Part shown: positions 12,076-56,431 of the stretch, piece after piece
How the letters are laid out: every line of letters starts with the position of its first letter
Position numbering within the stretch: position 1 is the stretch's first letter
Source: an uncultured Desulfobulbaceae bacterium
GTDB taxonomy: Bacteria > Desulfobacterota > Desulfobulbia > Desulfobulbales > BM004
Direction: 5' to 3'
Assembly: GCA_945787325.1 (NCBI GenBank)
Contig: CALZHP010000003.1
Span: 6,070-70,069, forward strand
DNA length: 64,000 nt
Made by a program: the position numbers and the translations under genes
Notes under the pieces: model-generated
What the model was told of the DNA's origin: nothing
Databases searched by the model: none
Seen by the model: only the letters and a program-made list of their open reading frames with translations

Positions 12076-12837
12076 TTAGTAAGATTCATTTCTATTTTTT
12101 AAAGCCTTTTTTATTTTCACTTTGAGCTTCATGAGTGCTTGGCTGTGAAGCTGTGAGACACGCCCTTCAGACACTTCCAGTATCCCAGCTATCTCTTTCT
12201 GATTGAGCTCTTCGTAGTAGTATAATGAAATGACCAACCGTTCTTTTTCGGAAAGTTTTCTGAGATGAGCGGCAATATCCTTAGTCAGTTCTTTTGATTC
12301 AATCCTTTCTGTAGGGGCTTTACCGTTTTCGTCCATCAGACTTTCCAAGAAATCACGGCCGTTTCTTGACCTATCGAGTGTTTCATGCAGGCTGACACAT
12401 CCCAGGTGACAGACTTGTCCCATCAACTTATGATAGTCTTCGAGATTCATATCCATAGCAGCAGCCATTTCTTCCTCCTCTGGAGAACGCCCCAGGGTTT
12501 TTTCCAGCCAGTCCATTGTTTTTGTCAGCCTGGAATGTTTTTCCCTTAAAGACCTTGAGAACCAGTCCATTTTTCGTACTTCATCAAAAATTGCTCCTCG
12601 TATACGATGCTCTGCAAAGGTTTTGAAAAGTATACCCTTGGATTCATCAAAACGGCTTGCAGCATCCAGCAATCCCATCATGGCAGCGCTTGCCATGTCG
12701 TCTCGTGTAAGAAAAGAAGGAACTTGAGGAACCATCCTTTCAACAATGCACTCAATCATCGGCATGTGACTCTTTATGAGAGCGTTTCTGTCATCTTCCT
12801 GATTTGTGTAGGGATTGTATTGTCTGTTCATCTTCAA
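12076..12837 (-). CDS. fliA: Flagellar sigma factor sigma-28 (FliA/SigD)
   Basis: It has sigma-70 family regions 2-4 (…DDMASAAMMGLLDAASRFDESKGILFKTFAEHRIRGAIFDEVRK…; …LNQKEIAGILEVSEGRVSQLHSQALMKLK). It follows flhG with a 4-bp overlap. Confidence 0.9.
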   Translation of the reverse strand: MKMNRQYNPYTNQEDDRNALIKSHMPMIECIVERMVPQVPSFLTRDDMASAAMMGLLDAASRFDESKGILFKTFAEHRIRGAIFDEVRKMDWFSRSLREKHSRLTKTMDWLEKTLGRSPEEEEMAAAMDMNLEDYHKLMGQVCHLGCVSLHETLDRSRNGRDFLESLMDENGKAPTERIESKELTKDIAAHLRKLSEKERLVISLYYYEELNQKEIAGILEVSEGRVSQLHSQALMKLKVKIKKALKNRNESY

Positions 12838-38150: not shown

Positions 38151-40721
38151 ATGAGCAAAGATATTTCTTCAGAAGACATTGAAATAATTCAAGACTTTAT
38201 CCAAGAAAGTCATGACATGCTTGATCAATTGGAACCAACGATTATTGAACTTGGTGAGAGTTGTCAAAGTGTGAACTGCTGGGAAATCCTTAAGTGTGAA
38301 AGTGATGACTGCCACCGACAAGGAAAAGAAATAGATATTCCCTGCTGGCTGCACACCGGTTATGTGGGAAACGGTCTTGGTATATGTACCCACGGCAGTT
38401 CTGAGGCCGAATGTCTGTCTTGCCAGGTCTTTGTAATGACAAACGGAGATACTGAAACAATGAACGCCATATTCCGTTTGTTTCATTCAATGAAAGGGAG
38501 TGCCGGGTTCCTTGAGTTCGACAATATTTCTCGCAGCGCGCATGCGGCTGAAAACCTGCTGGATTTGATCCGTTCCGGCAACATTCAAATGGTGCCAGAA
38601 CATGTTGATCTTCTCTGCAAAGCATGTGACTTTGCCAATGAAGCTCTCGACTACGTAGAGGAACATTTTAACGACGAAGGTATGGCTGAAAAAGCAGAAG
38701 AAATTACTTCCCTTCTTAGAGATGCTATTGAAGATGCTCAAAACAGGGCAAAATTTATTCAGGAAGATACTGTTCAACAAGGCAAGAAAAACGATACCCA
38801 TAGCTCTGATGAAAAAGCATCTGCTTCTGAAGAGTCTGAGCCAGATCAGCAGGATCTGATTGGTCCGGAAATGATAGAGACATTCGTGCTTGATGCTGAA
38901 GATTTACTCAGAAGGGTAGAGCTGAATCTTTTAAAATTAATTGAACAGCCGAGCGATGAGATCATTTTAGCAGATCTTTTCAGAGAGATGCACACTTTTA
39001 AAGGGAATTGCGGATTCCTAAACCTTGGAGACTTTGAGAGATTAAGCCACAAGGTAGAAAGTGTACTTGGGGAATATAAGGAAGGAGATGTCCTAACAGA
39101 TAGTGATTCCACTCAACTTCTCATCAATATTGTAGATACAATGCAATCTGGTGTTGCCGATTTTTCTTCTGATGGCGATGGTACAATAGATCAGTTGGAA
39201 ATGCATCTCAAGTCGTTGGACGACCTTCTTCAAAAAATAAGCAATGCCCCCCCTCCAATACCAGATGATGCACCACGCCTGGGTGAATTGCTCGTAGAAA
39301 AAGGAATTATTAATTTTGAAGATATCGAAGAGGCACTGGAAGAACAGCAGAAACCTCTTGGAGATATCTTGATTGATATGGGGAAGGTTACTCCCGAGCT
39401 GATAACAACTACTCTAAAAGAACAACATAAAATTATTTCGCAGGATGCAGATAAAAAAGGGAAACCGAAGCCAAGATCTTTACCTGTAAAACGCCAAGAC
39501 ATAAGAGTTGATCTTGAAAAGCTCGACAACCTAATAAATCTTATCGGCGAGATGGTTATCGCCGAAAACATGTTAGTTCACAACCCCGATCTGGAAGGAA
39601 TGGAGTTGGAGAACTTCAATAAGGCCGCCCAACAGATGGGTAAGCTTGTCCGTGAGCTGCAGGAGATGGCCATGATAATCAGGATGATTCCTGTGTCGGG
39701 TCTATTCAGGCGAATGATTCGTCTGGTTCACGATCTGTCTACAAAGTCTGGGAAAAAGGTAGATCTGCAGCTTGCAGGTGAAGAAACAGAGATAGATAAA
39801 ACTGTCATAGAAACAATCACGGATCCCCTTGTCCATTTGTTGCGTAATTCTTTGGACCACGGTCTAGAACCTCCGGAAGAAAGAAACAAGGCGGGAAAAC
39901 CTGAAATAGGTGTACTTATCTTGTCGGCAAGACATGAAGAAGGCGAGGTCTGGATTACCCTGGAAGATGACGGCAGGGGACTTAACCGTGAAAAGATTAT
40001 CGCAAAAGCAATAAAGAACGGATTATTAGAAGAAGAATCTCCAGATTTGAGCGACAAGGAGGTTTATAATCTTATTTTTCAGCCGGGATTTTCAACTGCT
40101 GAAGTGATAACAAATGTATCTGGCCGTGGTGTGGGGATGGATGTTGTAAAGCAGAATCTTAACAAAATAAGAGGTAAGGTTGAGGTTCAGAGTAAACCCG
40201 GACGCGGCACTAAAATAACCCTTCGTATTCCCCTTACCCTGGCTATTATCGACGGAATGCTCGTTCGCGTAGGGTTATCTAAGTGTATTCTTCCCATCCT
40301 GAATATCCGGGAGGCTTTTTGTCCAAAAAGCAGTTCGATAACAATTACCCCAGATGGTGAAGAGATTGTTCGTGTCCGGGAAAACTTTTTTCCTGTCATA
40401 AGACTTCATGAAATTCTAGGTAAAGAACCGGACTGTATGGAGCTTGAGAAAGGAATTCTGATTGTTCTTGAGTATCAGGACAATAGCGCCTGCCTGTTCG
40501 TGGATGAAATAATGGGGCAGCAGCAGACGGTTATTAAGGGGTTGTCAGATTATATTGGCAGCATTCCAGTTATTTCAGGTTGTACTATCCTCGGCAACGG
40601 GCAAGTCTGTCTCATTCTTGACACTGGTAACCTGGTTGAACTGAAAGAAGGAAGTGAGCATGCCGCTGCACTGCAGGAACTGGCCCAACAACAAAGTGCG
40701 GCCGAACAGGCTGCTAATTAA
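38151..40721 (+). CDS. cheA: Chemotaxis histidine kinase CheA, non-canonical: Hpt(with Cys-rich insert)-Hpt-MshEN-like-P3-P4-P5
   Basis: It carries two Hpt phospho-His boxes, FRLFHSMKGSAGF (H112) and FREMHTFKGNCGF (H281). The dimerisation segment is DIRVDLEKLDNLINLIGEMVI. The HATPase region has the N box HLLRNSLDHG, G1 DDGRG and G2 GRGVGMD. The C-terminus is CheW-like. Confidence 0.93.
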   Translation: MSKDISSEDIEIIQDFIQESHDMLDQLEPTIIELGESCQSVNCWEILKCESDDCHRQGKEIDIPCWLHTGYVGNGLGICTHGSSEAECLSCQVFVMTNGDTETMNAIFRLFHSMKGSAGFLEFDNISRSAHAAENLLDLIRSGNIQMVPEHVDLLCKACDFANEALDYVEEHFNDEGMAEKAEEITSLLRDAIEDAQNRAKFIQEDTVQQGKKNDTHSSDEKASASEESEPDQQDLIGPEMIETFVLDAEDLLRRVELNLLKLIEQPSDEIILADLFREMHTFKGNCGFLNLGDFERLSHKVESVLGEYKEGDVLTDSDSTQLLINIVDTMQSGVADFSSDGDGTIDQLEMHLKSLDDLLQKISNAPPPIPDDAPRLGELLVEKGIINFEDIEEALEEQQKPLGDILIDMGKVTPELITTTLKEQHKIISQDADKKGKPKPRSLPVKRQDIRVDLEKLDNLINLIGEMVIAENMLVHNPDLEGMELENFNKAAQQMGKLVRELQEMAMIIRMIPVSGLFRRMIRLVHDLSTKSGKKVDLQLAGEETEIDKTVIETITDPLVHLLRNSLDHGLEPPEERNKAGKPEIGVLILSARHEEGEVWITLEDDGRGLNREKIIAKAIKNGLLEEESPDLSDKEVYNLIFQPGFSTAEVITNVSGRGVGMDVVKQNLNKIRGKVEVQSKPGRGTKITLRIPLTLAIIDGMLVRVGLSKCILPILNIREAFCPKSSSITITPDGEEIVRVRENFFPVIRLHEILGKEPDCMELEKGILIVLEYQDNSACLFVDEIMGQQQTVIKGLSDYIGSIPVISGCTILGNGQVCLILDTGNLVELKEGSEHAAALQELAQQQSAAEQAAN

Positions 40722-40915
40722 CGGGAAATGACCAATTAGAAATCAATTGAAGCAGGCTTAAGTCAATCAGTTTGGGGAAGTACTTAATTTAAAATCAATG
40801 GAATAACTGATAGACAGCTGTAGCCGAGAATTCAGGGGGGGAGGACCCCCAAATGCATTATTGTGGTCGTTCAGAAAAACTGCAATAAATGCGTAAAATT
40901 CAAGGGAGGATTTCG

Positions 40916-41710
40916 ATGAGTAAAAGAGTTATGAAATTGTTTTTTGTTACTATGAGTTTGGTCCTGTTTTTTTCCTATTCCGCAAATGCTGCAGAGGTCC
41001 TGTTGTGGGGGTCAACTACCTGTCAGAAGCGTTTTCTGGAGCCTGGCAAGGAAGCGCTCAATAATGCTACAGGAGTTAACATCAAGGTTTTTGGGGTTGG
41101 TACAGGTAAGGGAATGCTTGCCCTTTTTGAAGGAAAGACCAATGTGGCAATTTCTTCGAATACCTTGGATGAGAGTGTTAAATCCGCCCAGAAGGTTCGA
41201 AAAAAAACAGGCAAGGAGCCTGTGGAAGTGCCAGAAGGACTTCAGTATCATGAGATAACCAAAGACGTCATTGTCCCTATAGTACACAAAGAAAACACTG
41301 TCAATAAACTGAGCTGGGAACAGCTGGCAGATCTGAACACCGGTAAAATCACCAACTGGAAAGATGTCGGTGGCCCAGATATGTCTGTTCAGGTTGTAAC
41401 AAGCCATGCCGGCAGTTCAACAAAAGCAGTATTCCGGAAGATGGTCATGAAGAAGGCAGAGTATGATGCCGGTGCAATCGAGGTAAAAAGCACCAGGTTG
41501 GAGATAAACAAAGTATCCAAAAATAAAGGTGGTGTAGGTGCTGTCAGTAGCGGTTTTCATACGCTGAATCCCGGCAAAACAAAAGTAGTTGAAACAAACA
41601 CGATTCAGAGACCTCTCGGTCTTGTAACAATTGGTGATCCGGCTCCTGATGTACAGAAAATAATTGATTTTTTTCGTTCAGCAGAAGGCAAGAAACATAT
41701 ACTAGATTAA
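40916..41710 (+). CDS. Periplasmic substrate-binding protein, PstS/PBP-like-2 family
   Basis: Signal peptide ...LVLFFSYSANA|AE, then ...LLWGSTTCQKRFLEPGKEAL...IKVFGVGTGKGMLALFEGKTNVAISSNTL..., the pattern of phosphate-type type-2 binding proteins. There is a strong SD (GGGAGGA) before the ATG at 40916. Confidence 0.8.
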   Translation: MSKRVMKLFFVTMSLVLFFSYSANAAEVLLWGSTTCQKRFLEPGKEALNNATGVNIKVFGVGTGKGMLALFEGKTNVAISSNTLDESVKSAQKVRKKTGKEPVEVPEGLQYHEITKDVIVPIVHKENTVNKLSWEQLADLNTGKITNWKDVGGPDMSVQVVTSHAGSSTKAVFRKMVMKKAEYDAGAIEVKSTRLEINKVSKNKGGVGAVSSGFHTLNPGKTKVVETNTIQRPLGLVTIGDPAPDVQKIIDFFRSAEGKKHILD

Positions 41711-45992: not shown

Positions 45993-47054
45993 ATGCTTAA
46001 AAAAATACGTGTTCTTGTTGTTGATGATTCTTTGCTTGTCAGGCAAGTACTTACCAAGGGACTTTCCGCTGATCCAGCTATAGAAGTTGTTGGAGCTGCT
46101 GAAGATCCATATGTTGCCAGGGATAAGATTGTGGAGCTGAAGCCCGATGTCCTGACCCTGGATGTGGAGATGCCCCGCATGAACGGTGTTGATTTCCTTC
46201 GCCGACTAATGGCCCAGCGGCCCATGCCGGTTGTTATGGTAAGTTCTCTTACACAGAAAGGACAAAAAGTTACACTTGATGCTCTGGAGGCGGGTGCAGT
46301 GGATTTCGTTTCCAAACCATCTGTATCCGGTATCAGTGGACTAAGTGGGATGCTGACAGAGTTGCGGGTTAAGGTAAAAACAGCAGTTACGGCAAATCTT
46401 CTTCAGCTCAAAGAGAAAAAAGAACGGGCTCCTCAAGAATCGGTTTCTAAGGACAATGTTAGAGCACTTGCAGAGCTGGCTGGAAAAGTAGTTGCGATAG
46501 GAGCATCGACCGGTGGAACTGAAGCTTTAAATACAATTTTATCGCAGTTTCCGGCAACTATGCCGGGTGTTGTTGTTGTTCAGCATATGCCACCAGGATT
46601 CACCAAGATGTTTGCAGAAAACTTGAATAATGCCTGTGCTATGAAAGTGAAGGAAGCGGAAACAGGTGACAGAATAATGTCTGGACGTATCCTCGTTGCA
46701 CCGGGAGGTGTGCAGACTAAGGTAGTAGAAAAAGGGGGTGTCCTGCAGGTCTCTTGCGGTTCTTCGGAAAAGGTAAGCGGTCATTGCCCTTCTGTAGATG
46801 TAATGATGCAATCAGTAGCAGAAAGCGTTGGGGCAGATGCTGTTGGAGTCATGCTGACTGGAATGGGTAATGATGGTACCAAAGGAATGCTTGCCATGAA
46901 AAATGCCGGAGCTAAAAATATGGCTCAGGATGAAGCATCTTCAGTTGTTTTCGGTATGCCTAAACAGGCTTATGAGGCTGGAGGTGCAAAAGCACTTGTC
47001 CCCCTTAATAGGATATCGGCTAAAATTATCAGTTTTCTCCTGGAGAAACGTTAG
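45993..47054 (+). CDS. cheB: Chemoreceptor methylesterase/response regulator CheB
   Basis: REC domain (VLVVDDS..., DVLTLDVEMPRMNG) plus an esterase domain (IGASTGG..., ...HMPPGFT..., ...GMGNDG). Confidence 0.94.
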   Translation: MLKKIRVLVVDDSLLVRQVLTKGLSADPAIEVVGAAEDPYVARDKIVELKPDVLTLDVEMPRMNGVDFLRRLMAQRPMPVVMVSSLTQKGQKVTLDALEAGAVDFVSKPSVSGISGLSGMLTELRVKVKTAVTANLLQLKEKKERAPQESVSKDNVRALAELAGKVVAIGASTGGTEALNTILSQFPATMPGVVVVQHMPPGFTKMFAENLNNACAMKVKEAETGDRIMSGRILVAPGGVQTKVVEKGGVLQVSCGSSEKVSGHCPSVDVMMQSVAESVGADAVGVMLTGMGNDGTKGMLAMKNAGAKNMAQDEASSVVFGMPKQAYEAGGAKALVPLNRISAKIISFLLEKR

Positions 47055-47539
47055 TGAGCGGAACCTTTCTAGGAATCGGCGATTATGCCGTCTCAAATGA
47101 GGCAGACTCCGTGTTGAAAACGTACCTTGGTTCTTGTGTTGCGGTTATCCTGCTTGATCCTATAACACGAACCGTTGGTATGGTGCACATAGCTCTGCCG
47201 GATTCAAGTCTAGATCCATCTAAGAAGGAATTATTACCTGGGTATTTTGCAGACTCAGGTATTGCTGTTCTTTTCAACAAGATGAAAGAGTACGGCTTCA
47301 GTGAAAAAAGCCATAAACTTATTGTAAAACTGGTGGGAGGGGCATCGGTAATGTCTCAATGTGATGTTTTTAACATTGGATTAAGAAATGTTGAGGCTGC
47401 AAAAAGTATACTGAAATCCATGGGTTTACATATATCATCAGAAGATGTTGGAGAGAAATACAGCAGATCTGTTGCCATTGAGGTGGATACAGGAAAGGTA
47501 ACTGTAAGCAGCCCAGGTCGCGGCCAGTGGGATATATGA
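47054..47539 (+). CDS. cheD: Chemoreceptor glutamine deamidase CheD
   Basis: ...LKTYLGSCVAVILLDP...GMVHIALP... with catalytic Cys/His contexts. It overlaps the cheB stop. Confidence 0.88.
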   Translation: MSGTFLGIGDYAVSNEADSVLKTYLGSCVAVILLDPITRTVGMVHIALPDSSLDPSKKELLPGYFADSGIAVLFNKMKEYGFSEKSHKLIVKLVGGASVMSQCDVFNIGLRNVEAAKSILKSMGLHISSEDVGEKYSRSVAIEVDTGKVTVSSPGRGQWDI

Positions 47540-47549
47540 GGTAGAAAGT

Positions 47550-48416
47550 ATGAACAAGAAACTTGTTAATAAAGAAATCATGATTGCTATCAAAAGCGCA
47601 CCGCTTCTTTCTCCAAGCGTTTATGATATTATAAGAAAAATAGCAGAACCTGACCACAGCCTGGCTGATGTGGTCAAGATTGTGAAGCATGATTCCGCAC
47701 TTACAGCAAGATTATTGAGGGTAGTTAACTCAGCGGCTTTTGCGACGTTAGATCCGGTTAATTCTGTTGACCGGGCTATATCATTACTTGGAGAACGTAT
47801 GGTTGTCGGTTTGGCTATATCAGAAAGTACAGGTAATTTATTCCATAAACCTCTAGAGGGCTACGATGGCAAAAAAGGTGACCTTTGGAGTCATGATCTT
47901 ATTGTTGCTTATGCAACAAGAAAAATAGCGGGACTAGCTAAGATTAATATCGATCCCGAACTGGCATTTACCGGTGGGTTATTACATGATATCGGCAAGG
48001 CGATTATTTCCGATTTTCTAAAAGGAACTGCGGAGGAGTTACTGCAGAGTATTGATAAAGGTCATGTCGATGATTATGCCTCGGCCGAAAAAAATTTCCT
48101 GGGAGTCAACCACCAGGCGGTGGGTTACGAACTTGCCATGAACTGGAATTTACCTGAATCAATCCAACAGATGATCCTCCATCACCACAGCCCTGCCGAA
48201 TCGGATGATGAGTTCAAACCTTATGTTTATGCAGTTCATTTAGGAGATATTATATCAATGATGTCCGGATTTGGTACCGGCACAGATATTATGCAATATA
48301 ACCTGGACCAGGGATATGAAGAGTATTTTAATCTTAAATTTGAATCGATAGCATCTGTAATGCTGGAAATTAAGGATAAATGTAAAAGAGTAATTGGGGT
48401 GGAGGACTGCATGTAG
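47550..48416 (+). CDS. HDOD domain protein
   Basis: ...ADVVKIVKHDSALTARLLRVVNSAAF... and ...GGLLHDIGKAIIS... are HDOD hallmarks. Confidence 0.8.
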   Translation: MNKKLVNKEIMIAIKSAPLLSPSVYDIIRKIAEPDHSLADVVKIVKHDSALTARLLRVVNSAAFATLDPVNSVDRAISLLGERMVVGLAISESTGNLFHKPLEGYDGKKGDLWSHDLIVAYATRKIAGLAKINIDPELAFTGGLLHDIGKAIISDFLKGTAEELLQSIDKGHVDDYASAEKNFLGVNHQAVGYELAMNWNLPESIQQMILHHHSPAESDDEFKPYVYAVHLGDIISMMSGFGTGTDIMQYNLDQGYEEYFNLKFESIASVMLEIKDKCKRVIGVEDCM

Positions 48417-48887: not shown

Positions 48888-49346
48888 ATGGTTGAACCAC
48901 AAGAGTTGATTAGCTTCACCCAAGAAATATTCTCTACGATGATCATGATGGATGTAAGGCCGGGTGAACCTATTACAGGAAAATATGAGTTTTTTCAATC
49001 TTCCATTACCGGTATGGTTGGTCTGGCAGGGAAATATAAAGGAATGATCGCTATTCATGTTCCCGACAATGTAGCAAAAACGATAACAGGAAACTTTCTT
49101 GGCTGTGGTGTTGAAGAGATTAATGAAGATGTCCATGATGCAATTGGAGAGCTAGCGAATATGTTAGGAGGTAGCATAAAAGCCTGCTTAGCTGAATCCA
49201 GTAAAGATATCGAGCTTTCATTGCCTACTACTGTTTTAGGGATGCAATATTCCCTGCAGAGTCAGGATGATGTTAAGGTTATGACAATTCCTTTCAGCGT
49301 TGAAGGTGGTGAGTTTCTGGTTGAAATACAGTTGCAAGAAAAATAA
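48888..49346 (+). CDS. cheX: CheX-type CheY-P phosphatase (CheC/CheX/FliY family)
   Basis: A single active-site motif, D-x3-E-x2-N (DAIGELANMLGG), followed by a Pro about 22 residues later. CheX-like size (152 aa). Confidence 0.8.
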   Translation: MVEPQELISFTQEIFSTMIMMDVRPGEPITGKYEFFQSSITGMVGLAGKYKGMIAIHVPDNVAKTITGNFLGCGVEEINEDVHDAIGELANMLGGSIKACLAESSKDIELSLPTTVLGMQYSLQSQDDVKVMTIPFSVEGGEFLVEIQLQEK

Positions 49347-49446
49347 TTACTGATTGATATGATGTTTAATAATGTCAAATATACAAATCGAGTTCAATAA
49401 CTTTATAAGTAGCGACATTATAATCATGGCTTCATAATAGGAGACA

Positions 49447-50586
49447 ATGAAAGCAAGGGAGACAATTGATAACACACTGGATGCGGCGAAATTGCATCTA
49501 CAGAAAGAAGTTGGTGATCTTCTTGGACACAAAGTCAGTCTATCAGATCCCAGGGGCCGCTTCATTTCCAAGGTGAACTTTTTTTCAAGATTCGAAAGTA
49601 AAAACGTTCTTGTCAAATTTGAGGTAAGTGGTGAACTGGAAGGGATTATATATCTTAATTTTTCTATGAAAGATGCTATTACACTTGGCGGTACGCTCAT
49701 AATGCTTCCCGATGCTGAACTGGAGGCACACATCTCTAAAGGTGAATTTGGTGAGGATGAAGCAGATGCATTTGGTGAAATAACAAATATCATTTGCGGT
49801 CTCTACACGAAAAGTTTTACTGAGCAATTTCCCCAAAAAATCCATTTTAAAAAAACGGACCTTGTAGTTTTCCAACCATCTGAAATAGATATTGATTCTC
49901 CCGACCCTATTCCGGACGTAGGTTACTATTTGGTATCTTTTCCAATGGTTCTCGGGGAAAAACAACTTGGTGAATTTGATACCCTATTTCCTGCAGAATT
50001 GTTCGGAATGGAGTTTGTTGAAGAACAAGGCGTCGCAGAGAAAGTTCAGGGTGAAGAGGGTGAAAAGCAGGCGGAACCAGCGGCTTCAGATGATGGGATA
50101 ACAGAGTCCCCGCCGACTGATGTTGGAGCATCAGAAACTGAACTGGGGGCTCCTGCAGCCCAGGAAGATGCAGCAGTGACTCCTGCTCAAGACGTAAGCG
50201 CTTCTGCTGCAATAAATCAGGAAAGCACCCGAGTGATCATACTTGCAGATGAAGTCCAGGACGCTCAACCCTTTATGAGTACACTTCAGGAATGCGGGTT
50301 CGAGCCGAATATTATGAATTTTAATGATAATATAAAGGATGTTGTCGCCCAGGGAGTACGCGGAATTTTTATTATCTTGAACGAAGTGAACGAGCAGGGT
50401 ATGGCGGCTCTAATAAAAATAAGCTCAGCCTGTAGTGGTGGTTATCCACTTGTAATAGCAGGGCCGGAATGGACGCGAAAAACTGTTATGCAGGCTGTTA
50501 AATATGGTGCCTGTGACATAGTTATGACCCCGGCGTCACCTGATGAAATAAAAGGAAAAATTTGCCAGCACTTCGGAAGCGTCTAA
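49447..50586 (+). CDS. CheC-like domain - acidic linker - degenerate receiver (pseudo-REC) fusion protein
   Basis: A D-x3-E-x2-N motif is present (DAFGEITNIICG, codons 107-114). A Glu/Ala/Pro-rich linker of about 70 aa follows. The C-terminal 120 aa have a REC fold pattern (VIILADE..., GIFIILNEVN, PLVIAGP, DIVMTP), but Asn, Ala/Gly and Thr replace the phospho-Asp, Thr/Ser and Lys. Confidence 0.65.
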   Translation: MKARETIDNTLDAAKLHLQKEVGDLLGHKVSLSDPRGRFISKVNFFSRFESKNVLVKFEVSGELEGIIYLNFSMKDAITLGGTLIMLPDAELEAHISKGEFGEDEADAFGEITNIICGLYTKSFTEQFPQKIHFKKTDLVVFQPSEIDIDSPDPIPDVGYYLVSFPMVLGEKQLGEFDTLFPAELFGMEFVEEQGVAEKVQGEEGEKQAEPAASDDGITESPPTDVGASETELGAPAAQEDAAVTPAQDVSASAAINQESTRVIILADEVQDAQPFMSTLQECGFEPNIMNFNDNIKDVVAQGVRGIFIILNEVNEQGMAALIKISSACSGGYPLVIAGPEWTRKTVMQAVKYGACDIVMTPASPDEIKGKICQHFGSV

Positions 50587-50612: not shown

Positions 50613-52088
50613 TTACGAGTCCGGAATTATATTTTTCTTTTTAATTTTTTCCAGAAGAGTAGTCCTTTTCAGATTCAGTAATTTTGCAGCTTCCTTTTTA
50701 TTGCCTTTCGAAACCTCCAGTGCCTGAAGGATCAGCTTCCTTTCATAATTATCAACCAGGGTGTTGAAGTCTATTCCATTTTCATCCAGTTCTAATTCCT
50801 GATCATGCTGAATTTCAGATGATACAGGATCAGGTTCGGTAGTGATGTTATCAATATGTGCCGTGTATTTAGGAGGCAGGTCAGTCAGTGCGACTTTTTT
50901 CCCACCGTGCAGGATAGACATATGTTGTACCAGGTTTTCAAGTTCCCGCACATTGCCTCGCCAAGGATACTCCTGCATTTGTTCGATGGTTTCAGACTCA
51001 AATCCCTGTAAGGGCTTTTTTTTGTTGCGGTTAAAAATCTGTACGAACTTGTTAATCAGAATCGGAATATCAGGTTTACGTTCACGGAGAGGAGGGATGT
51101 TAATAGGAACGACACTCAGACGGTAGAATAAATCTTCTCGAAAATTTCCTGAAGCGACCTTATCCTCAAGGTCACAGTGAGTGGCGGCGATTATTCGAAC
51201 ATTGGCCGGAATGGGTTTAAGTCCTCCCACCGGTTCAAATTCCTTTTCCTGGAGCACTCTCAGCAGTTTGGCCTGCAGGGAAGGTTTCATATCACCAATT
51301 TCATCAAGAAAAAGTGTTCCCCCGTCAGCATACTGTATACGACCCATTTTTGACTTAGTTGCTCCTGTGAAAGCGCCTTTGACATACCCAAAAAGTTCAC
51401 TTTCAAGAAGCTCGTCAGGAATTGCCGTACAGTTAACAGGCACGAGGTTTTTTCCTTTCCGAGGGCTGTGGGCATGAATTGCCTGTGCTACCAGTTCTTT
51501 TCCAGTCCCGCTTTCGCCATGTATGAGGACTGTACTGATGTCATCATCTGCAACTTTACTAATGAGGTAGAATAGATTCTGCATTACAGAGGAGTCACCG
51601 ATAATTCCATGGAATCCCTCCGACTTTCTGCTCTTAACACTCGCCTTCTTCTCTTGAGACATGCTGGCCGAATAGTTTAGCCCACGGCTGACAGCAATGA
51701 CTGCTTCACCATAGTCATACGGAGAATTAATATAGAAAAACGTGCCGAGACGCAGCACCTCGGTGATTATCTCCCTGTTTCCGGAAGGTATAGCGGCAAT
51801 TGTAATAATTTCAGGGTTTGATGCATGTGTTTCTTTTAATAGAGCTATCCCTTCTCTTTTAGGAAGGAAAAGGTCTGTTAGAAGAAGAGAGATGTTCCCA
51901 TCGTTTAACAACTCCTGAGCATCTTCCGTTGACCCGGCTTCAAGTACTACGCATCCAATTTCTTTGCGCAGCATGACGGCAAGGCTTTCCCTTGCTTTAG
52001 TGTCTGGATCTACAAGAAGAATAGTGCAGTAGGCTTGATTGTTATTCTGATCTTTATTTTCAGTATTTTTTCTCATTGAAGGTGTCAT
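50613..52088 (-). CDS. Sigma-54-dependent response regulator (NtrC/FlrC/FleR-type enhancer-binding protein)
   Basis: REC (ILLVDPD..., LLLTDLFLP), AAA+ (GESGTGKE, GAFTGA, ...RVIAAT...) and a C-terminal Fis-type HTH (...GNKKEAAKLLNLKRTTLLEKIKK). No adjacent histidine kinase. Confidence 0.92.
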   Translation of the reverse strand: MTPSMRKNTENKDQNNNQAYCTILLVDPDTKARESLAVMLRKEIGCVVLEAGSTEDAQELLNDGNISLLLTDLFLPKREGIALLKETHASNPEIITIAAIPSGNREIITEVLRLGTFFYINSPYDYGEAVIAVSRGLNYSASMSQEKKASVKSRKSEGFHGIIGDSSVMQNLFYLISKVADDDISTVLIHGESGTGKELVAQAIHAHSPRKGKNLVPVNCTAIPDELLESELFGYVKGAFTGATKSKMGRIQYADGGTLFLDEIGDMKPSLQAKLLRVLQEKEFEPVGGLKPIPANVRIIAATHCDLEDKVASGNFREDLFYRLSVVPINIPPLRERKPDIPILINKFVQIFNRNKKKPLQGFESETIEQMQEYPWRGNVRELENLVQHMSILHGGKKVALTDLPPKYTAHIDNITTEPDPVSSEIQHDQELELDENGIDFNTLVDNYERKLILQALEVSKGNKKEAAKLLNLKRTTLLEKIKKKNIIPDS

Positions 52089-52365: not shown

Positions 52366-53157
52366 ATGATCGCTCAACGCATAGAAAAGATAGGAAGTTA
52401 TACGCTCTACTATCTGCATGATATTGGAAGAATGGGGCTGTTTCTGTTTTATGCTCTTTTGGGAACATTTAAACGTCCATTCAGATTTGCAGCGTTGGTA
52501 AAGGAAATCCGCCTGATAGGTGCCAATTCGTTCGCTGTAATTTTTTTCACGGCGGCATTTACCGGGATGGTTTTGGGACTGCAAGGTTATTATACCCTTC
52601 GCCAGTTCGGTTCTGAAGGTTTATTGGGTTCCGCGGTTGCATTGAGCCTGATCCGGGAACTTGGGCCGGTTCTTACCGCTCTGATGGTCACTGGAAGGGC
52701 GGGCTCAGCGATGTGTGCTGAAATAGGCATAATGAGGATTTCAGAGCAGATTGATGCATTGGACTGTATGGCAATTGATCCATTTCGTTTTTTAATTACC
52801 CCTAAACTCTGGGCCACAATCATTTCAGTTCCTTTACTTACTCTCATCTTCAATGTTGTTGGTATTTATGGTGGCTATGTCGCCGGCGTATATATTCTCG
52901 GAGTTAACCCTGGCGCTTATTTTACGGGCATGGAACATAGTGTGATAAATAAGGATATAAATCTAGGAATTATTAAATCTTTCGCATTTGCGCTGATTAT
53001 TATTTGGGTTTGTGCGGGACGTGGTTATTTTGTACAGGAGATAAAAGGGGCAGGTTTTGGGGCCGAGAGTGTGAGCCGGGTGACGACCCAGGCTGTTGTC
53101 ATCTCTTCTATTTCTATATTGATCTGTGATTATTTAATAACGGCTGTGCTGCTATGA
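52366..53157 (+). CDS. mlaE: Mla-type ABC transporter permease MlaE
   Basis: ...FGSEGLLGSAVALSLIRELGPVLTALMVTGRAGSAMCAEIGIMRISEQIDALDCMAIDP... is the MlaE/Ttg2B signature. Confidence 0.88.
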   Translation: MIAQRIEKIGSYTLYYLHDIGRMGLFLFYALLGTFKRPFRFAALVKEIRLIGANSFAVIFFTAAFTGMVLGLQGYYTLRQFGSEGLLGSAVALSLIRELGPVLTALMVTGRAGSAMCAEIGIMRISEQIDALDCMAIDPFRFLITPKLWATIISVPLLTLIFNVVGIYGGYVAGVYILGVNPGAYFTGMEHSVINKDINLGIIKSFAFALIIIWVCAGRGYFVQEIKGAGFGAESVSRVTTQAVVISSISILICDYLITAVLL

Positions 53158-53945
53158 GTACTTCAACTATAAAATTTATAGATGTTTATAAAACATTTGC
53201 CAGGAACTCATCAAATCCCCAGACCGTTTTAGATGGGGTAAACTTTGAACTGAAGCCTGGAAAAACAACTGTTATTGCCGGTGGAAGTGGGCAGGGAAAA
53301 AGTGTAAGTTTGAAACTCATACTTGGTCTGATGAAACCTGATTCAGGTCAAATTCTGGTTGACGGTAAAGATGTAGCCCAAATGGGAAAAAAAGATTTAA
53401 AAGAAGTACGTATGAATTTTGGAGTTCTCTTTCAGGGGTCCGCACTATTTGACTCGCTGACTGTTTATGAGAATGTCGCATTGCCACTTCAGGAAAGAAC
53501 TAAAGCAAGCAGTGATGAAATCAGGGAACGTGTAACCAAAAGCCTGGCACAGTTTGATCTGGCAGGACATGAAGATAAGTATCCTGCTCAACTGAGCGGT
53601 GGTATGAAAAAACGAGTGGGGCTCGCGAGAGCATTACAATTGCAACCGAAATTTATGCTGTTTGATGAGCCGACTACGGGACTTGATCCTGCAAAATCAC
53701 TTGAAATTTATCGGTTGTTTTATAAGACGCAGCAGGAATTCGGTTACACTTCTATAATTGTTAGCCATGATATTCCCAAGATTTTTAATCTTGCCGATCA
53801 GGTTATTGTCCTGCACCAGGGGAAGATGAGTGTTTTTGACAGTCCTGAAGAAATTCAATGGTCAGAAGATCCAAATATAAAATCGTTTGTTGAAATGACT
53901 ATGGGACACGTTTATCAAAGCCATGAGATGGAACGAATACAATGA
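53154..53945 (+). CDS. mlaF: Mla-type ABC transporter ATPase MlaF
   Basis: Walker A GGSGQGKS, the signature LSGGMKKR, and Walker B MLFDEPT. Confidence 0.9.
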   Translation: MSTSTIKFIDVYKTFARNSSNPQTVLDGVNFELKPGKTTVIAGGSGQGKSVSLKLILGLMKPDSGQILVDGKDVAQMGKKDLKEVRMNFGVLFQGSALFDSLTVYENVALPLQERTKASSDEIRERVTKSLAQFDLAGHEDKYPAQLSGGMKKRVGLARALQLQPKFMLFDEPTTGLDPAKSLEIYRLFYKTQQEFGYTSIIVSHDIPKIFNLADQVIVLHQGKMSVFDSPEEIQWSEDPNIKSFVEMTMGHVYQSHEMERIQ

Positions 53946-54406
53946 AAAAAGTTACTGTTGATTACGTTGTGGGCTTGTTCATGATTCTGGGGTTTCTCGC
54001 CTTTGTCTATTTATCGTTGCAACTGGGAGAGTTTTCCATTTTTTCAATGGAAAAAAATTACTCTGTCTCGGCGCAATTTGATAATGTTTCAGGACTTAAG
54101 GAGGGAGCGGCTGTTGAAATTGCCGGTGTAAGTGTTGGCCGGGTGTCTAAGATAATACTTGGTGAAGATGATCTGGCAGAAGTTACTCTATTGATCAACA
54201 AGGATGTCAAAATAACCATGGATGCTATAGCTTCCATCAGAACTCAAGGTATAATTGGAGATAAATTCATCAGGGTTTTTCAGGGTGGTGATTCAGAGAT
54301 GCTAAAGCATGATGATGTGATCTGGGAAACTGAATCAGCTGTTGATCTTGAAAAATTGATAAGTCAGTATATTTTCGGAAGCGCCCAGGAAAAAAGTGAT
54401 GAATAA
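53942..54406 (+). CDS. mlaD: MCE-domain protein MlaD
   Basis: An N-terminal TM helix plus ...FDNVSGLKEGAAVEIAGVSVGRVSKI.... Confidence 0.85.
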   Translation: MKKVTVDYVVGLFMILGFLAFVYLSLQLGEFSIFSMEKNYSVSAQFDNVSGLKEGAAVEIAGVSVGRVSKIILGEDDLAEVTLLINKDVKITMDAIASIRTQGIIGDKFIRVFQGGDSEMLKHDDVIWETESAVDLEKLISQYIFGSAQEKSDE

Positions 54407-54484
54407 ATATGTACTTTCCTCCTTAATATTATTCGGTTTATCTTTCTGAAATTGAGTGGTGTTAATAATAAAGACAAATAGTAC

Positions 54485-54512
54485 TTGAAAATCCAACAAA
54501 ACACCCTAGAAT
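54485..54512 (+). promoter_or_regulatory. Possible internal sigma-70-like promoter before mlaA
   Basis: TTGAAA-N16-TAGAAT in the 177-bp gap between mlaD and mlaA. Confidence 0.4.
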
Positions 54513-54583
54513 AAATATCCTTTCATTTAATATTTGCACTTTCTTCTAAAGTTCTTCATGGGGCGTCCGATAAATATATTGTT

Positions 54584-55771
54584 ATGAATATATATAAATT
54601 GCCCAGGAAAAATACATCATTTTGGTTGTTTACAATAATTATAGGATTATTGCTATATTGTCCGAATTCCTTTGCCACAGAAGCAATATCTGGTGGGCCT
54701 GAAAACCTTGAGGATATGGAGTGGTTGTCCAGTGAAGAGAGCTCCGGTGGCGTTGAGAATTGGACTGCTAAGGATGATACTGTATTGACAGCAGACCCAT
54801 TGGAGCCTGTCAATCGCCTGTTCTTTCACTTCAATGATAAACTATACTACTGGGTACTTAAACCAGTCGCCACTGTTTACTCCAAGGTGATTCCCAAAGA
54901 CGTGAGGGGTAGTATTCGAAATTGCTTTGATAATCTGCTAACCCCCGTTCGTGTTGTAAATAATTTATTGCAAGGAAAGGTGAAAGGTACTGGTGTTGAG
55001 CTATCACGGTTTGTTATTAATTCAACATTGGGAATATATGGATTTGGCGACCCGGCAGTAGAATTTGGCCTTGAACCTCAGAGTGAGGATTTCGGACAAA
55101 CATTAGGTACTTATGGGATCGGGCGAGGTGTTTACATTCACTGGCCTGTACTTGGACCATCAAATATTCGTGATACTATAGGTTTGGTTGCTGATTCTTT
55201 TCTGGACCCACTTGCATATATTGTTTCCAGTGAGACTTTTGCAACTGCTGCAGTATATGGTGGTAAAAAAGTAAACGAAATTTCTTTACAGCTGGGAGAC
55301 TACGAACTTTTTAAAGAGACTTCCCTTGATCCTTATACCGCGGTACGTGATGCTTATCAGCAGTACAGAGAAGGACAGATTAAAGATTTATCAAGTAAAG
55401 AGAAGGACAATTCCAAACATGCTAGAGCTGCAGTAAAAATGGGCCTTGTAGCAGGAAATTATATGTTAAATGGCGGGAGGTCTGGATTTCCACAATATCA
55501 TGAAGATGATTCGATAGTAGGTGAAAGTGCGGTCGATGAAAGTACATATTTTATTCAAGTAGGTACTTTTTCTGACCCAGACCAAGTTGATAAAGTGATA
55601 GATGAATTAAGCTCGATTAAAATTAATCCGGTTGTTAAAGTATATGAAAGAGAAGATTATTCGATCTTTGGTGTGCAGGTTGCAGCCGGTACTAATTTTT
55701 ATATGGCAAAAAAACAGGAAATACAGTTGGCGGCGGCTGGTTACAATGGTGCTTTTGTCGTCACCAGGTAA
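54584..55771 (+). CDS. mlaA: MlaA/VacJ family lipoprotein fused to a C-terminal SPOR domain
   Basis: The VacJ core reads ...DPLEPVNRLFFHFNDKLYYWVLKPVATVYSKVIP...VRNCFDNLLTPVRVVNNLLQGK... The C-terminal ...YFIQVGTFSDPDQVDKVIDELSS...IFGVQVAAGTNFYMAKKQEIQLAAAGYNGAFVV is SPOR-like. Confidence 0.8.
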   Translation: MNIYKLPRKNTSFWLFTIIIGLLLYCPNSFATEAISGGPENLEDMEWLSSEESSGGVENWTAKDDTVLTADPLEPVNRLFFHFNDKLYYWVLKPVATVYSKVIPKDVRGSIRNCFDNLLTPVRVVNNLLQGKVKGTGVELSRFVINSTLGIYGFGDPAVEFGLEPQSEDFGQTLGTYGIGRGVYIHWPVLGPSNIRDTIGLVADSFLDPLAYIVSSETFATAAVYGGKKVNEISLQLGDYELFKETSLDPYTAVRDAYQQYREGQIKDLSSKEKDNSKHARAAVKMGLVAGNYMLNGGRSGFPQYHEDDSIVGESAVDESTYFIQVGTFSDPDQVDKVIDELSSIKINPVVKVYEREDYSIFGVQVAAGTNFYMAKKQEIQLAAAGYNGAFVVTR

Positions 55772-55804
55772 CTATTCTTAAGTTCAATACGGACAGGTTA
55801 TTTA

Positions 55805-56431
55805 ATGAAACACTTATTTTTTGCCAGAAGAATAACAACATTCTTTGTAATTATCTCTGCCTTGTTTGGGTTTTGCAGTGTGAGTGCATCATCTGATACG
55901 CCTTTGGATCAGATGAAAACATCTGTTGAAAAACTGCTTGAAATACTCAGCGATGATCAGCTGAAGACTCCTGAAATGCAGAGTGAGAGGAAAAAACGTG
56001 TTGTGAGTGTTGTAGATGGAATTTTTGACTTTCATGGCATGGCTCGAAGCTCTCTTGCAAAAGAATGGCAGAAAATCTCAGCTGAGGACCAGAAAGAATT
56101 TGTTGATTTGTTTTCAAAGCTGATTAAACAGAGATATATTGGTAAAATAGATGCTTACGACGGACAAAAAGTTGTATTTGGCAAAGAGATTATTCGCGGT
56201 GAACGTGCCCTTATCTATAGTACTTTGCAGGATAATTCAAGCAGCTACTCCATGGTATATTTTCTAAAAAAGAATCAAGATAAGTGGCTTATTATTAATA
56301 TGAAAATTGAAAATGTGAGTCTTGTAGCAAACTACAGAAGTGATTTTTCCAGCATAATCAGAAAGGATAAATATGCAGGGCTAGTTAAAATGCTTAAAGA
56401 TAAAGTAAGTGGGTTCAAGGAATCCTGGTAA
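55805..56431 (+). CDS. mlaC: Periplasmic lipid-binding protein MlaC (Ttg2D family)
   Basis: A signal peptide, then ...FDFHGMARSSLAKEWQKISAEDQKEFVDLFSKLIKQRYIGKIDAYDGQKV... Confidence 0.8.
   Translation: MKHLFFARRITTFFVIISALFGFCSVSASSDTPLDQMKTSVEKLLEILSDDQLKTPEMQSERKKRVVSVVDGIFDFHGMARSSLAKEWQKISAEDQKEFVDLFSKLIKQRYIGKIDAYDGQKVVFGKEIIRGERALIYSTLQDNSSSYSMVYFLKKNQDKWLIINMKIENVSLVANYRSDFSSIIRKDKYAGLVKMLKDKVSGFKESW

Follow-up and report, generated by a model that had tools for sequence, protein, structure and literature searches.

A divergent CheC/FliY-type domain joined by a disordered acidic linker to a pseudo-receiver in chemotaxis operons of Desulfobulbales and Desulfuromonadales

The location of the phosphatase that acts on phosphorylated CheY (CheY-P) shapes the sharpness and uniformity of the chemotaxis signal, and several unrelated solutions to placing it are known: CheZ at the receptor array (in E. 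coli through CheA-short), FliY in the motor, and CheC together with CheD. FliY (T. maritima 4HYN; B. subtilis) is a CheC-family phosphatase of the flagellar switch, in which a CheC-type phosphatase domain is joined to a second domain, FliN, that places it in the cell. Members of the CheC/CheX/FliY superfamily share the published active-site consensus D/S-X3-E-X2-N-X21-P, and the catalytic mechanism of CheX and CheC has been described (PMC12887009). Receiver domains, too, can serve placement: pseudo-receivers (i.e., recognisable receivers without the residues needed for phosphotransfer) are in many cases constitutive dimers (PMC12632262), FrzS, a receiver that is not phosphorylated, controls polar localisation (PMC1974792), and atypical receivers as a group are known in localisation or dimerisation (PMC1974792, PMC12632262). 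Here we describe a protein in which both kinds of domain occur in one chain, namely the 379-residue product of an open reading frame (ORF; positions 49447-50586, plus strand, ATG start) in a 64,000-nucleotide stretch of contig CALZHP010000003.1 from an uncultured Desulfobulbaceae bacterium, which we will henceforth refer to as the window.

The initial annotation of this ORF, made from the sequence alone, had read it as a CheC-like domain fused to a receiver domain lacking its phospho-acceptor, and we found that both the ORF and its described parts hold: the protein consists of an N-terminal CheC/FliY-type domain, a disordered acidic linker and a C-terminal pseudo-receiver. We consider it somewhat better than an even bet (a probability of roughly 55%) that this protein is a CheY-P phosphatase whose pseudo-receiver docks or oligomerises. 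Specifically, a phosphatase of the CheC/FliY class would be co-produced with the flagellar chemotaxis proteins from the last gene of their operon, and would carry one active centre in its N-domain, with both Glu111 and Asn114 borne by a long helix that, on the model of CheX and CheC, would enter the active site of phosphorylated CheY and position the attacking water. A disordered acidic tether of roughly 65 residues would join the enzyme to a receiver fold that cannot be phosphorylated and that would serve as an interaction module, either oligomerising the protein or docking it at a receiver-binding site (e.g., on the kinase or the flagellar switch), and the tethered phosphatase domain (two or three in most relatives) would clear CheY-P locally.

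The assignment of the N-domain is based on structure and on family profiles. We built an AlphaFold2 model with an alignment of 62 relatives (mean predicted local distance difference test score, pLDDT, 85.4), in which residues 1-195 were modelled at pLDDT >90. In a Foldseek search of this domain against the PDB the best match was T. maritima FliY (4hyn; E 1.2e-11, about 190 aligned columns, template modelling (TM) score 0.73-0.78), followed by CheC (2f9z/1xkr; E 4e-10), which has the same fold over about 190 residues, whereas CheX structures were poorer matches (TM 0.56-0.69 vs. 0.68-0.78 for FliY and CheC). A profile of 20 family N-domains searched against the PDB likewise placed FliY first (full length, E 2e-5) and CheC after it (E 7.6e-4), and had no CheX among its matches (E up to 1). 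Searches with the window protein itself gave fainter signals, i.e., CheC at E 0.02 and receivers at E 1-2 with phmmer against the PDB, and weak CheC/FliY matches in NCBIfam. We assign the N-domain to the CheC/CheX/FliY superfamily as a divergent member, with a fold nearest to those of FliY and CheC.

The single catalytic-type motif that had been pointed out in the N-terminal half, D-x3-E-x2-N, is intact (DAFGEITN, residues 107-114), and the protein conforms to the D/S-X3-E-X2-N part of the consensus. Across 402 family domains, including every repeat of the multi-domain relatives, D107 is conserved in 98%, E111 in 99% and N114 in 95%. In the alignments it falls opposite the second of the two active-site motifs in T. 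maritima CheC (E112/N115, in our own numbering of the alignment) and in FliY, and the long helix that bears it corresponds to the second active-site helix of these proteins. Class I CheC (T. maritima 1XKR/2F9Z, with CheD as its partner) and class II FliY carry one motif in each half of the fold; FliY thus has two active sites, of which the protein described here keeps the second alone. CheX (class III; B. burgdorferi 3HZH, T. maritima 1XKO, V. vulnificus 6VPW) resembles the family in having one E-x2-N site per domain, but it has about 150 residues, as opposed to the approximately 190 of the domain studied here, and functions as a homodimer, and genuine CheX genes adjoin the family gene. The N-domain is, in other words, a CheC/FliY-sized fold with a CheX-like single site. 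Because the Glu/Asn pair is invariant in every repeat, CheY and CheX are constant neighbours and the setting is flagellar, we infer that the protein dephosphorylates CheY-P, presumably by the same mechanism as CheX (PMC12887009). Another block, GGTLIMLP (residues 81-88), is specific to the family: across the 402 CheC-like domains its positions are 90-98% conserved except for Thr83 (75%) and Ile85 (87%), and the profile alignment does not place it opposite the GGSG stretch of FliY. An N-terminal I-D-x-L-L was considered as a free CheY-binding peptide like that of FliM and was rejected, as in the model it forms part of helix 1, a segment predicted with high confidence.

Some observations weigh against a phosphatase of this class. 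The match of the window protein to Pfam CheX (PF13690; residues 59-127, E 5.5e-5) scores 23.6 bits, which is under the cut-off of 27. The trailing proline of the consensus is absent: Lys136 is aligned to the proline of FliY, the position is K/R in 94% of the family, and the sole proline after N114 is P129 (X14). Finally, the first CheC/FliY active site has been lost, its sites at positions 5, 9 and 12 being variable in the family; CheC E13/N16 and FliY E14/N17 align to positions 9 and 12, where the window protein has Asn and Asp (family composition K30/V16 and K20/A13, respectively). Among the relatives, all 62 that were aligned match Pfam CheX (best E 4e-13), the model by which the family is detected, and 61 of the 62 match CheC at E up to 1.

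At the other end of the protein, residues 259-379 were also modelled at pLDDT >90, and DSSP applied to the model gives five strand-helix units in the order found in a receiver. The initial annotation had read the C-terminal 120 residues as a receiver fold and had named structure prediction as the check on which that reading could fail; the predicted structure is a receiver fold, and four further comparisons agree with it. Foldseek aligned the domain to the receivers MicA, YycF, MtrA and ArlR at TM 0.81-0.84, with the non-phosphorylated CpaE/TadZ-type domains 4dad and 4dn6 among the first receiver-type neighbours, and HP1043 as well. In an hhalign comparison, 239 family C-domains matched a small receiver alignment with Prob 92.8 and E 5e-8; the family profile found H. 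pylori CheY1 in the PDB at E 3.9e-7, together with NtrC1, LuxO and many CheYs; and BLAST aligned the domain to the operon's own CheY (E 3e-5, 24% identity). Pfam Response_reg (PF00072) gave no match to the window protein at any E up to 10, and matched 20 of 62 relatives at E up to 1 (best 2.9e-5). Since the pseudo-receiver is mostly invisible to Pfam, such proteins are filed as 'hypothetical', 'CheX' or 'CheC'; the labels of relatives include 'hypothetical' in some sources and, for some proteins at JGI, 'CheC / ActR-RegA family response regulator'.

The active-site quintet of receivers comprises an acidic pair (DD), the phospho-acceptor D, a T and a K (PMC12632262). At the corresponding positions the window protein has A267/D268, I310, G339 and T361, and these departures from the quintet are family-wide. 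The acidic pair, placed by hhalign and BLAST, is half kept. Gly339 at the Thr/Ser position and Thr361 at the Lys position were agreed on by all three alignments (hhalign, PDB profile and BLAST), much as the initial annotation had proposed (Ala/Gly and Thr), and these changes extend throughout the family: Gly occupies position 339 in 84% of members and Thr position 361 in 79%, with Lys absent from the four commonest residues at the latter. The acceptor position depends on the register. The phospho-Asp falls opposite Ile310 in the hhalign and PDB profile alignments, a register that also fits the strand at 306-310 in the model, and opposite Glu313 in the pairwise BLAST alignment; we found no Asp anywhere in residues 305-318 (RGIFIILNEVNEQG), and the domain is therefore without a phospho-acceptor in every register. 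The loss of the acceptor had thus been recognised correctly, but the Asn that was thought to replace it (Asn312) is displaced in the profile alignments, by which Ile310 is the more likely position (family composition V73/I16 at 310 and M85 at 311, with 312 variable).

The C-domain is a pseudo-receiver by the published definition (PMC12632262), and is so throughout the family. Its most conserved residues (I323, K324, P334, W342, T343, V347, A350, Y353, G354, D357, I358 and P362) cluster in the beta3-alpha3 loop and alpha3 and in the beta4-alpha4-beta5 region, i.e., selection has kept a surface and not the phosphochemistry. A family-specific P-x-W-T-R (residues 340-344) occupies the beta4-alpha4 loop, with Pro340 at the T+1 position conserved in 82% of the family, W342 in 100%, T343 in 98% and R344 in 86%. 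The domain resembles the pseudo- and atypical receivers FrzS, CpaE/TadZ (N-domain), FleQ and HP1043 in having a receiver fold without phosphorylation residues, and differs from them in lying at the C-terminus behind a disordered linker and in the P-x-W-T-R motif. None of these four was found fused to a CheC-family phosphatase. The initial annotation knew of no characterised example of this architecture, and we found none in the literature searched, which is weak evidence as most subscription journals lie outside it; a 2025 review of pseudo-receivers makes no mention of CheC or CheX. Both domain types are familiar, while their conserved combination, the tandem expansion of one of them and the P-x-W-T-R and GGTLIMLP motifs are undescribed. 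The family extends known themes and does not break them.

The two domains are joined by an Ala/Pro/Glu-rich linker (residues 196-258), which had been noted as acidic and which we found to be disordered as well (pLDDT <50); the wider stretch of residues 189-260 contains 25% Asp+Glu and carries a net charge of -16. Across the family the linker is poorly conserved and varies in length between 6 and 127 residues (median 46); in 91% of members its net charge is negative. The predicted TM score (pTM) of the full model is 0.56, which by our own estimate is about what would be expected for two well-folded domains that are not fixed relative to one another. FliY has no such long acidic linker, nor tandem phosphatase repeats, and its partner domain is FliN and not a receiver fold.

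To place the protein among its relatives, we compared domain numbers and gene neighbourhoods. An exhaustive search yielded 325 representatives at 50% identity, and a word-indexed search yielded 224 relatives, almost all of them 576-659 residues long. In a scan of one genome per species, relatives were present in 308 genomes, all belonging to Desulfobulbales or Desulfuromonadales where named, and the window protein is therefore no one-off of its genome. Among 265 retrieved proteins, 160 had two CheC-like domains and one pseudo-receiver, 69 had one of each and 8 had three CheC-like domains and one pseudo-receiver; in the other 28, most of which were fragments, one of the two domain types was not matched over its full length. 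The chain thus contains a single pseudo-receiver whatever the number of phosphatase domains. The 119 other top matches of the first search were all 576-659 residues long, from which arose the idea that the 379-residue protein is a truncated or assembly-collapsed copy of a 600-residue, two-domain form. We rejected it, as there are 69 single-domain members and the window N-domain is as distant from the first domains of relatives as from the second (about 40-47%). Two proteins of 126 and 158 residues (P0251 and P0242) look like stand-alone pseudo-receivers with their own Met start, and could be split genes or fragments.

Gene neighbours were counted in 61 related loci with at least 8 kb of upstream sequence. 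CheY was found upstream in all 61, CheX immediately upstream in 59, two or more CheX genes in 56, a sigma54 activator next downstream in 54 and a TPR gene upstream in 46. CheD and HDOD genes each occurred in 22 of the 61 loci, CheD being counted within the stretch examined, and the two stand side by side in the locus listing. In loci without CheD the TPR gene is followed directly by CheY, CheX, CheX and the family gene. A published study of a Desulfuromonas genome counted a cheC in a 'unique' che cluster adjoining flagellar genes (PMC8235581).

What does the pseudo-receiver do for the enzyme? Its single copy per chain, the long, variable and disordered tether and the pTM of 0.56 favour an anchor or oligomeriser over an inhibitor that acts one-to-one in cis. 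A decoy that docks on CheA or FliM had been among the roles suggested in the initial annotation, and it stays a candidate here. A more specific form of docking, which we put forward tentatively and regard as well short of an even chance, is that the pseudo-receiver acts as a permanent, phosphorylation-independent CheY mimic on the two-Hpt kinase or the flagellar switch, to which it would deliver one to three phosphatase domains. If so, the family would represent a third independently evolved solution to phosphatase localisation, beside CheZ/CheA-short and FliY in the C-ring, with catalytic valency tuned through domain duplication. The parallel with E. coli CheZ/CheA-short is one of function alone (a CheY-P phosphatase held at a defined site of the pathway), as both the fold and the tethering device are unrelated.

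The same likeness to CheY could be put to a different use within the chain. Under this explanation, proposed in the initial annotation as a substrate mimic, the pseudo-receiver would sit on the active-site helix of the phosphatase and block it until a signal arrives, making the protein an autoinhibited, regulated enzyme. The best profile matches of the C-domain among solved structures are indeed CheY proteins, it aligns to the operon's own CheY, and its conserved P-x-W-T-R loop lies beside the former active site, on the beta4-alpha4 side that in CheY is reportedly the face contacted by CheX in complex 3HZH. We nevertheless consider this unlikely: one pseudo-receiver cannot block one, two or three phosphatase domains one-to-one, a disordered and poorly conserved linker of anywhere between 6 and 127 residues fits such blocking badly, and the pTM gives no sign of a fixed interface. 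Pure mimicry in cis is hence a poor fit.

An adaptor for CheD, another role suggested at the outset, would have the protein behave like CheC of B. subtilis or T. maritima, mainly binding and controlling the receptor deamidase CheD and so coupling CheY-P to receptor modification, with phosphatase activity secondary. The operon does contain CheD and no canonical CheC, and CheD is present in the cluster of each of the eight single-domain relatives for which enough upstream sequence was available. Across the family as a whole, though, CheD is absent from most loci (present in 22 of 61, against 61 for CheY and 59 for CheX). CheC reportedly binds CheD through helix alpha2' (Chao et al. 2006), and where CheC has this helix, after the last strand, the model has a helix of four residues (183-186). 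Besides this truncated helix, the protein differs from CheC in the lost first site and the added pseudo-receiver, and structurally it is no further from FliY, which is not known to bind CheD, than from CheC. CheD as an operon neighbour therefore stands, but the proposed sequestration of CheD by this protein is weakened, and we think it improbable.

Comparably improbable, in our judgement, is a regulator switched by a ligand or partner, in which the pseudo-receiver would bind a small molecule (e.g., a nucleotide second messenger) or a protein and switch the phosphatase through oligomerisation, linking chemotaxis to another signal. Conservation is strong in the beta3-alpha3 loop and in alpha3 (E316, F319, I323, K324) and likewise in the W-T-R loop, and ligand-binding pseudo-receivers often use the beta3-alpha3/alpha3 region (PMC12632262). 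The operon also encodes an HDOD protein, but 39 of the 61 loci have none. Known ligand motifs are unmatched: W-T-R bears a superficial likeness to the W[FLM][TS]R c-di-GMP motif of VpsT-type regulators, but was rejected as a match because one residue is missing and because in VpsT that motif sits in another part of the fold. Least probable of all, to the point that we give it very little credence, is that the N-domain is a FliM-like structural module without phosphatase activity in a non-catalytic scaffold (an accessory of the switch complex or the array), for although FliM middle domains were about the equal of CheC as Foldseek matches (E 3e-9 to 1e-8, TM 0.72-0.79), FliM is not known to have the E-x2-N pair, which here is 95-99% conserved in every repeat, and the family sequence profile matched FliY and CheC in the PDB and not FliM.

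Taken as a CheY-P phosphatase with a docking or oligomerising pseudo-receiver, the family would add to the known ways of placing this activity a design made from the substrate's own fold, equipped with one to three catalytic modules and found widely among the Desulfobulbales and Desulfuromonadales that reduce sulfate, sulfur or metals. It may thereby point to a novel means of placing or regulating the enzyme responsible for terminating chemotaxis signalling. For the study of what pseudo-receivers do in bacteria the family would offer a clear test case, as the enzymatic output of the domain joined to the pseudo-receiver can be predicted, and hosts in culture include Desulfuromusa kysingii, Desulfopila aestuarii, Desulfosediminicola flagellatus and Pelovirga terrestris.

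Table 1. Positions of the 379-residue ORF, its parts and its neighbours in the window.
Feature	Position	Strand	Basis
ORF, 379 aa, final gene of the che operon	49447..50586	+	ORF reading; relatives align from residue 1-2
Ribosome-binding site AGGAG, ending 3 nt 5' of the ATG	49439..49443	+	sequence reading
CheC/FliY-type phosphatase-like domain, aa 1-195	49447..50031	+	AlphaFold2, Foldseek, family profile
Family-specific motif GGTLIMLP, aa 81-88	49687..49710	+	402 family domains
Catalytic-type motif D107-x3-E111-x2-N114 on long helix	49765..49788	+	sequence, alignments
Disordered acidic Ala/Pro/Glu-rich linker, aa 196-258	50032..50220	+	pLDDT <50
Pseudo-receiver, aa 259-379, (beta-alpha)5 fold	50221..50583	+	model, Foldseek, hhalign, profile, BLAST
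End of beta3, Ile310-Leu311-Asn312; acceptor position in alternative registers, none Asp	50374..50382	+	hhalign, PDB profile
Gly339 (Thr/Ser position), Pro340 (T+1), then W342-T343-R344 loop	50461..50478	+	alignments, family composition
P-x-W-T-R, aa 340-344	50464-50478		
Thr361-Pro362 replacing receiver Lys-Pro	50527..50532	+	hhalign, BLAST, family composition
CheY, presumed substrate, canonical active-site residues	48497..48868	+	Pfam Response_reg E 4e-27
CheX, stand-alone phosphatase, directly upstream	48888..49346	+	Pfam CheX E 6.8e-24
CheD, same operon, inconstant family neighbour	47054..47539	+	
Flagellar gene cluster	1-35105	-	
FliA sigma28	12076-12837		
TPR protein, 830 aa	35144-37636	-	
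CheA, two Hpt	38151-40721		
PBP-like gene	40889-41710		
HDOD/HD gene	47550-48416		
Sigma54-dependent activator	50613-52088	-	
Mla lipid-transport operon	52366-56431	+	

The start of the ORF is supported by the alignments with relatives, which begin at residue 1-2. It closes an operon in the order CheA (two Hpt), PBP-like (periplasmic-binding-protein superfamily), MCP, CheW, CheR, CheB, CheD, HDOD, CheY, CheX and the 379-residue protein; CheD and CheX, already placed in this operon by the initial annotation, were both identified there, together with a CheA that has two Hpt stretches. In the 100-nt gap between the CheX gene and the ORF we looked for a terminator-like site on the plus strand and found none.

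A full flagellar gene cluster lies upstream on the opposite strand, divergent from the che operon, and includes genes for flagellin, FlgL/K, FlgI, FlgG/F, FliA, FlhG, FlhF, FlhA, FlhB, FliR, FliP, FliM, MotB, FlgE, FliK, FliI, FliG and FliF. No FliY-type gene was seen among the genes scanned in this cluster. The 830-residue TPR protein is encoded between the flagellar and che clusters, and it is its homologue at that boundary that was counted in the related loci. In the Desulfocapsaceae-type loci (L008, L011-L013, L015, L018, L022 and others), CheY, CheX, CheX and the family gene stand alone after the TPR gene, and past the sigma54 activator, on the other strand, comes a second che cluster (CheA-CheY fusion, CheW, CheB, CheR and CheY); in such loci the protein tends to be of the three-domain form.

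Downstream, the sigma54-dependent activator (receiver, AAA+ and HTH) converges on the ORF with 26 nt between them and is probably a flagellar regulator. Such an activator carried a receiver domain in just 3 of the 54 loci that have one next downstream. Two HxxKG Hpt motifs were present in each of the 21 complete CheAs of this cluster type, the 22nd, which is truncated at the N-terminus, showing one. In the CheA of the window the first Hpt has an insertion of about 60 residues (approximately residues 36-100) with 8-9 Cys (SCQSVNCWEILKCESDDCHRQG...PCWLH...CTH...CLSC) before the phospho-His motif HSMKG. This Cys-rich insertion, possibly a metal- or redox-sensing element of the kinase, is common to four related loci (L005, L007, L020 and L073), while 15 of 22 related two-Hpt CheAs have no Cys at the insertion site. 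Beyond the che region, the Mla operon comprises MlaE, MlaF, MlaD, an MlaA-SPOR fusion and MlaC, with the SPOR domain at the C-terminus of MlaA.

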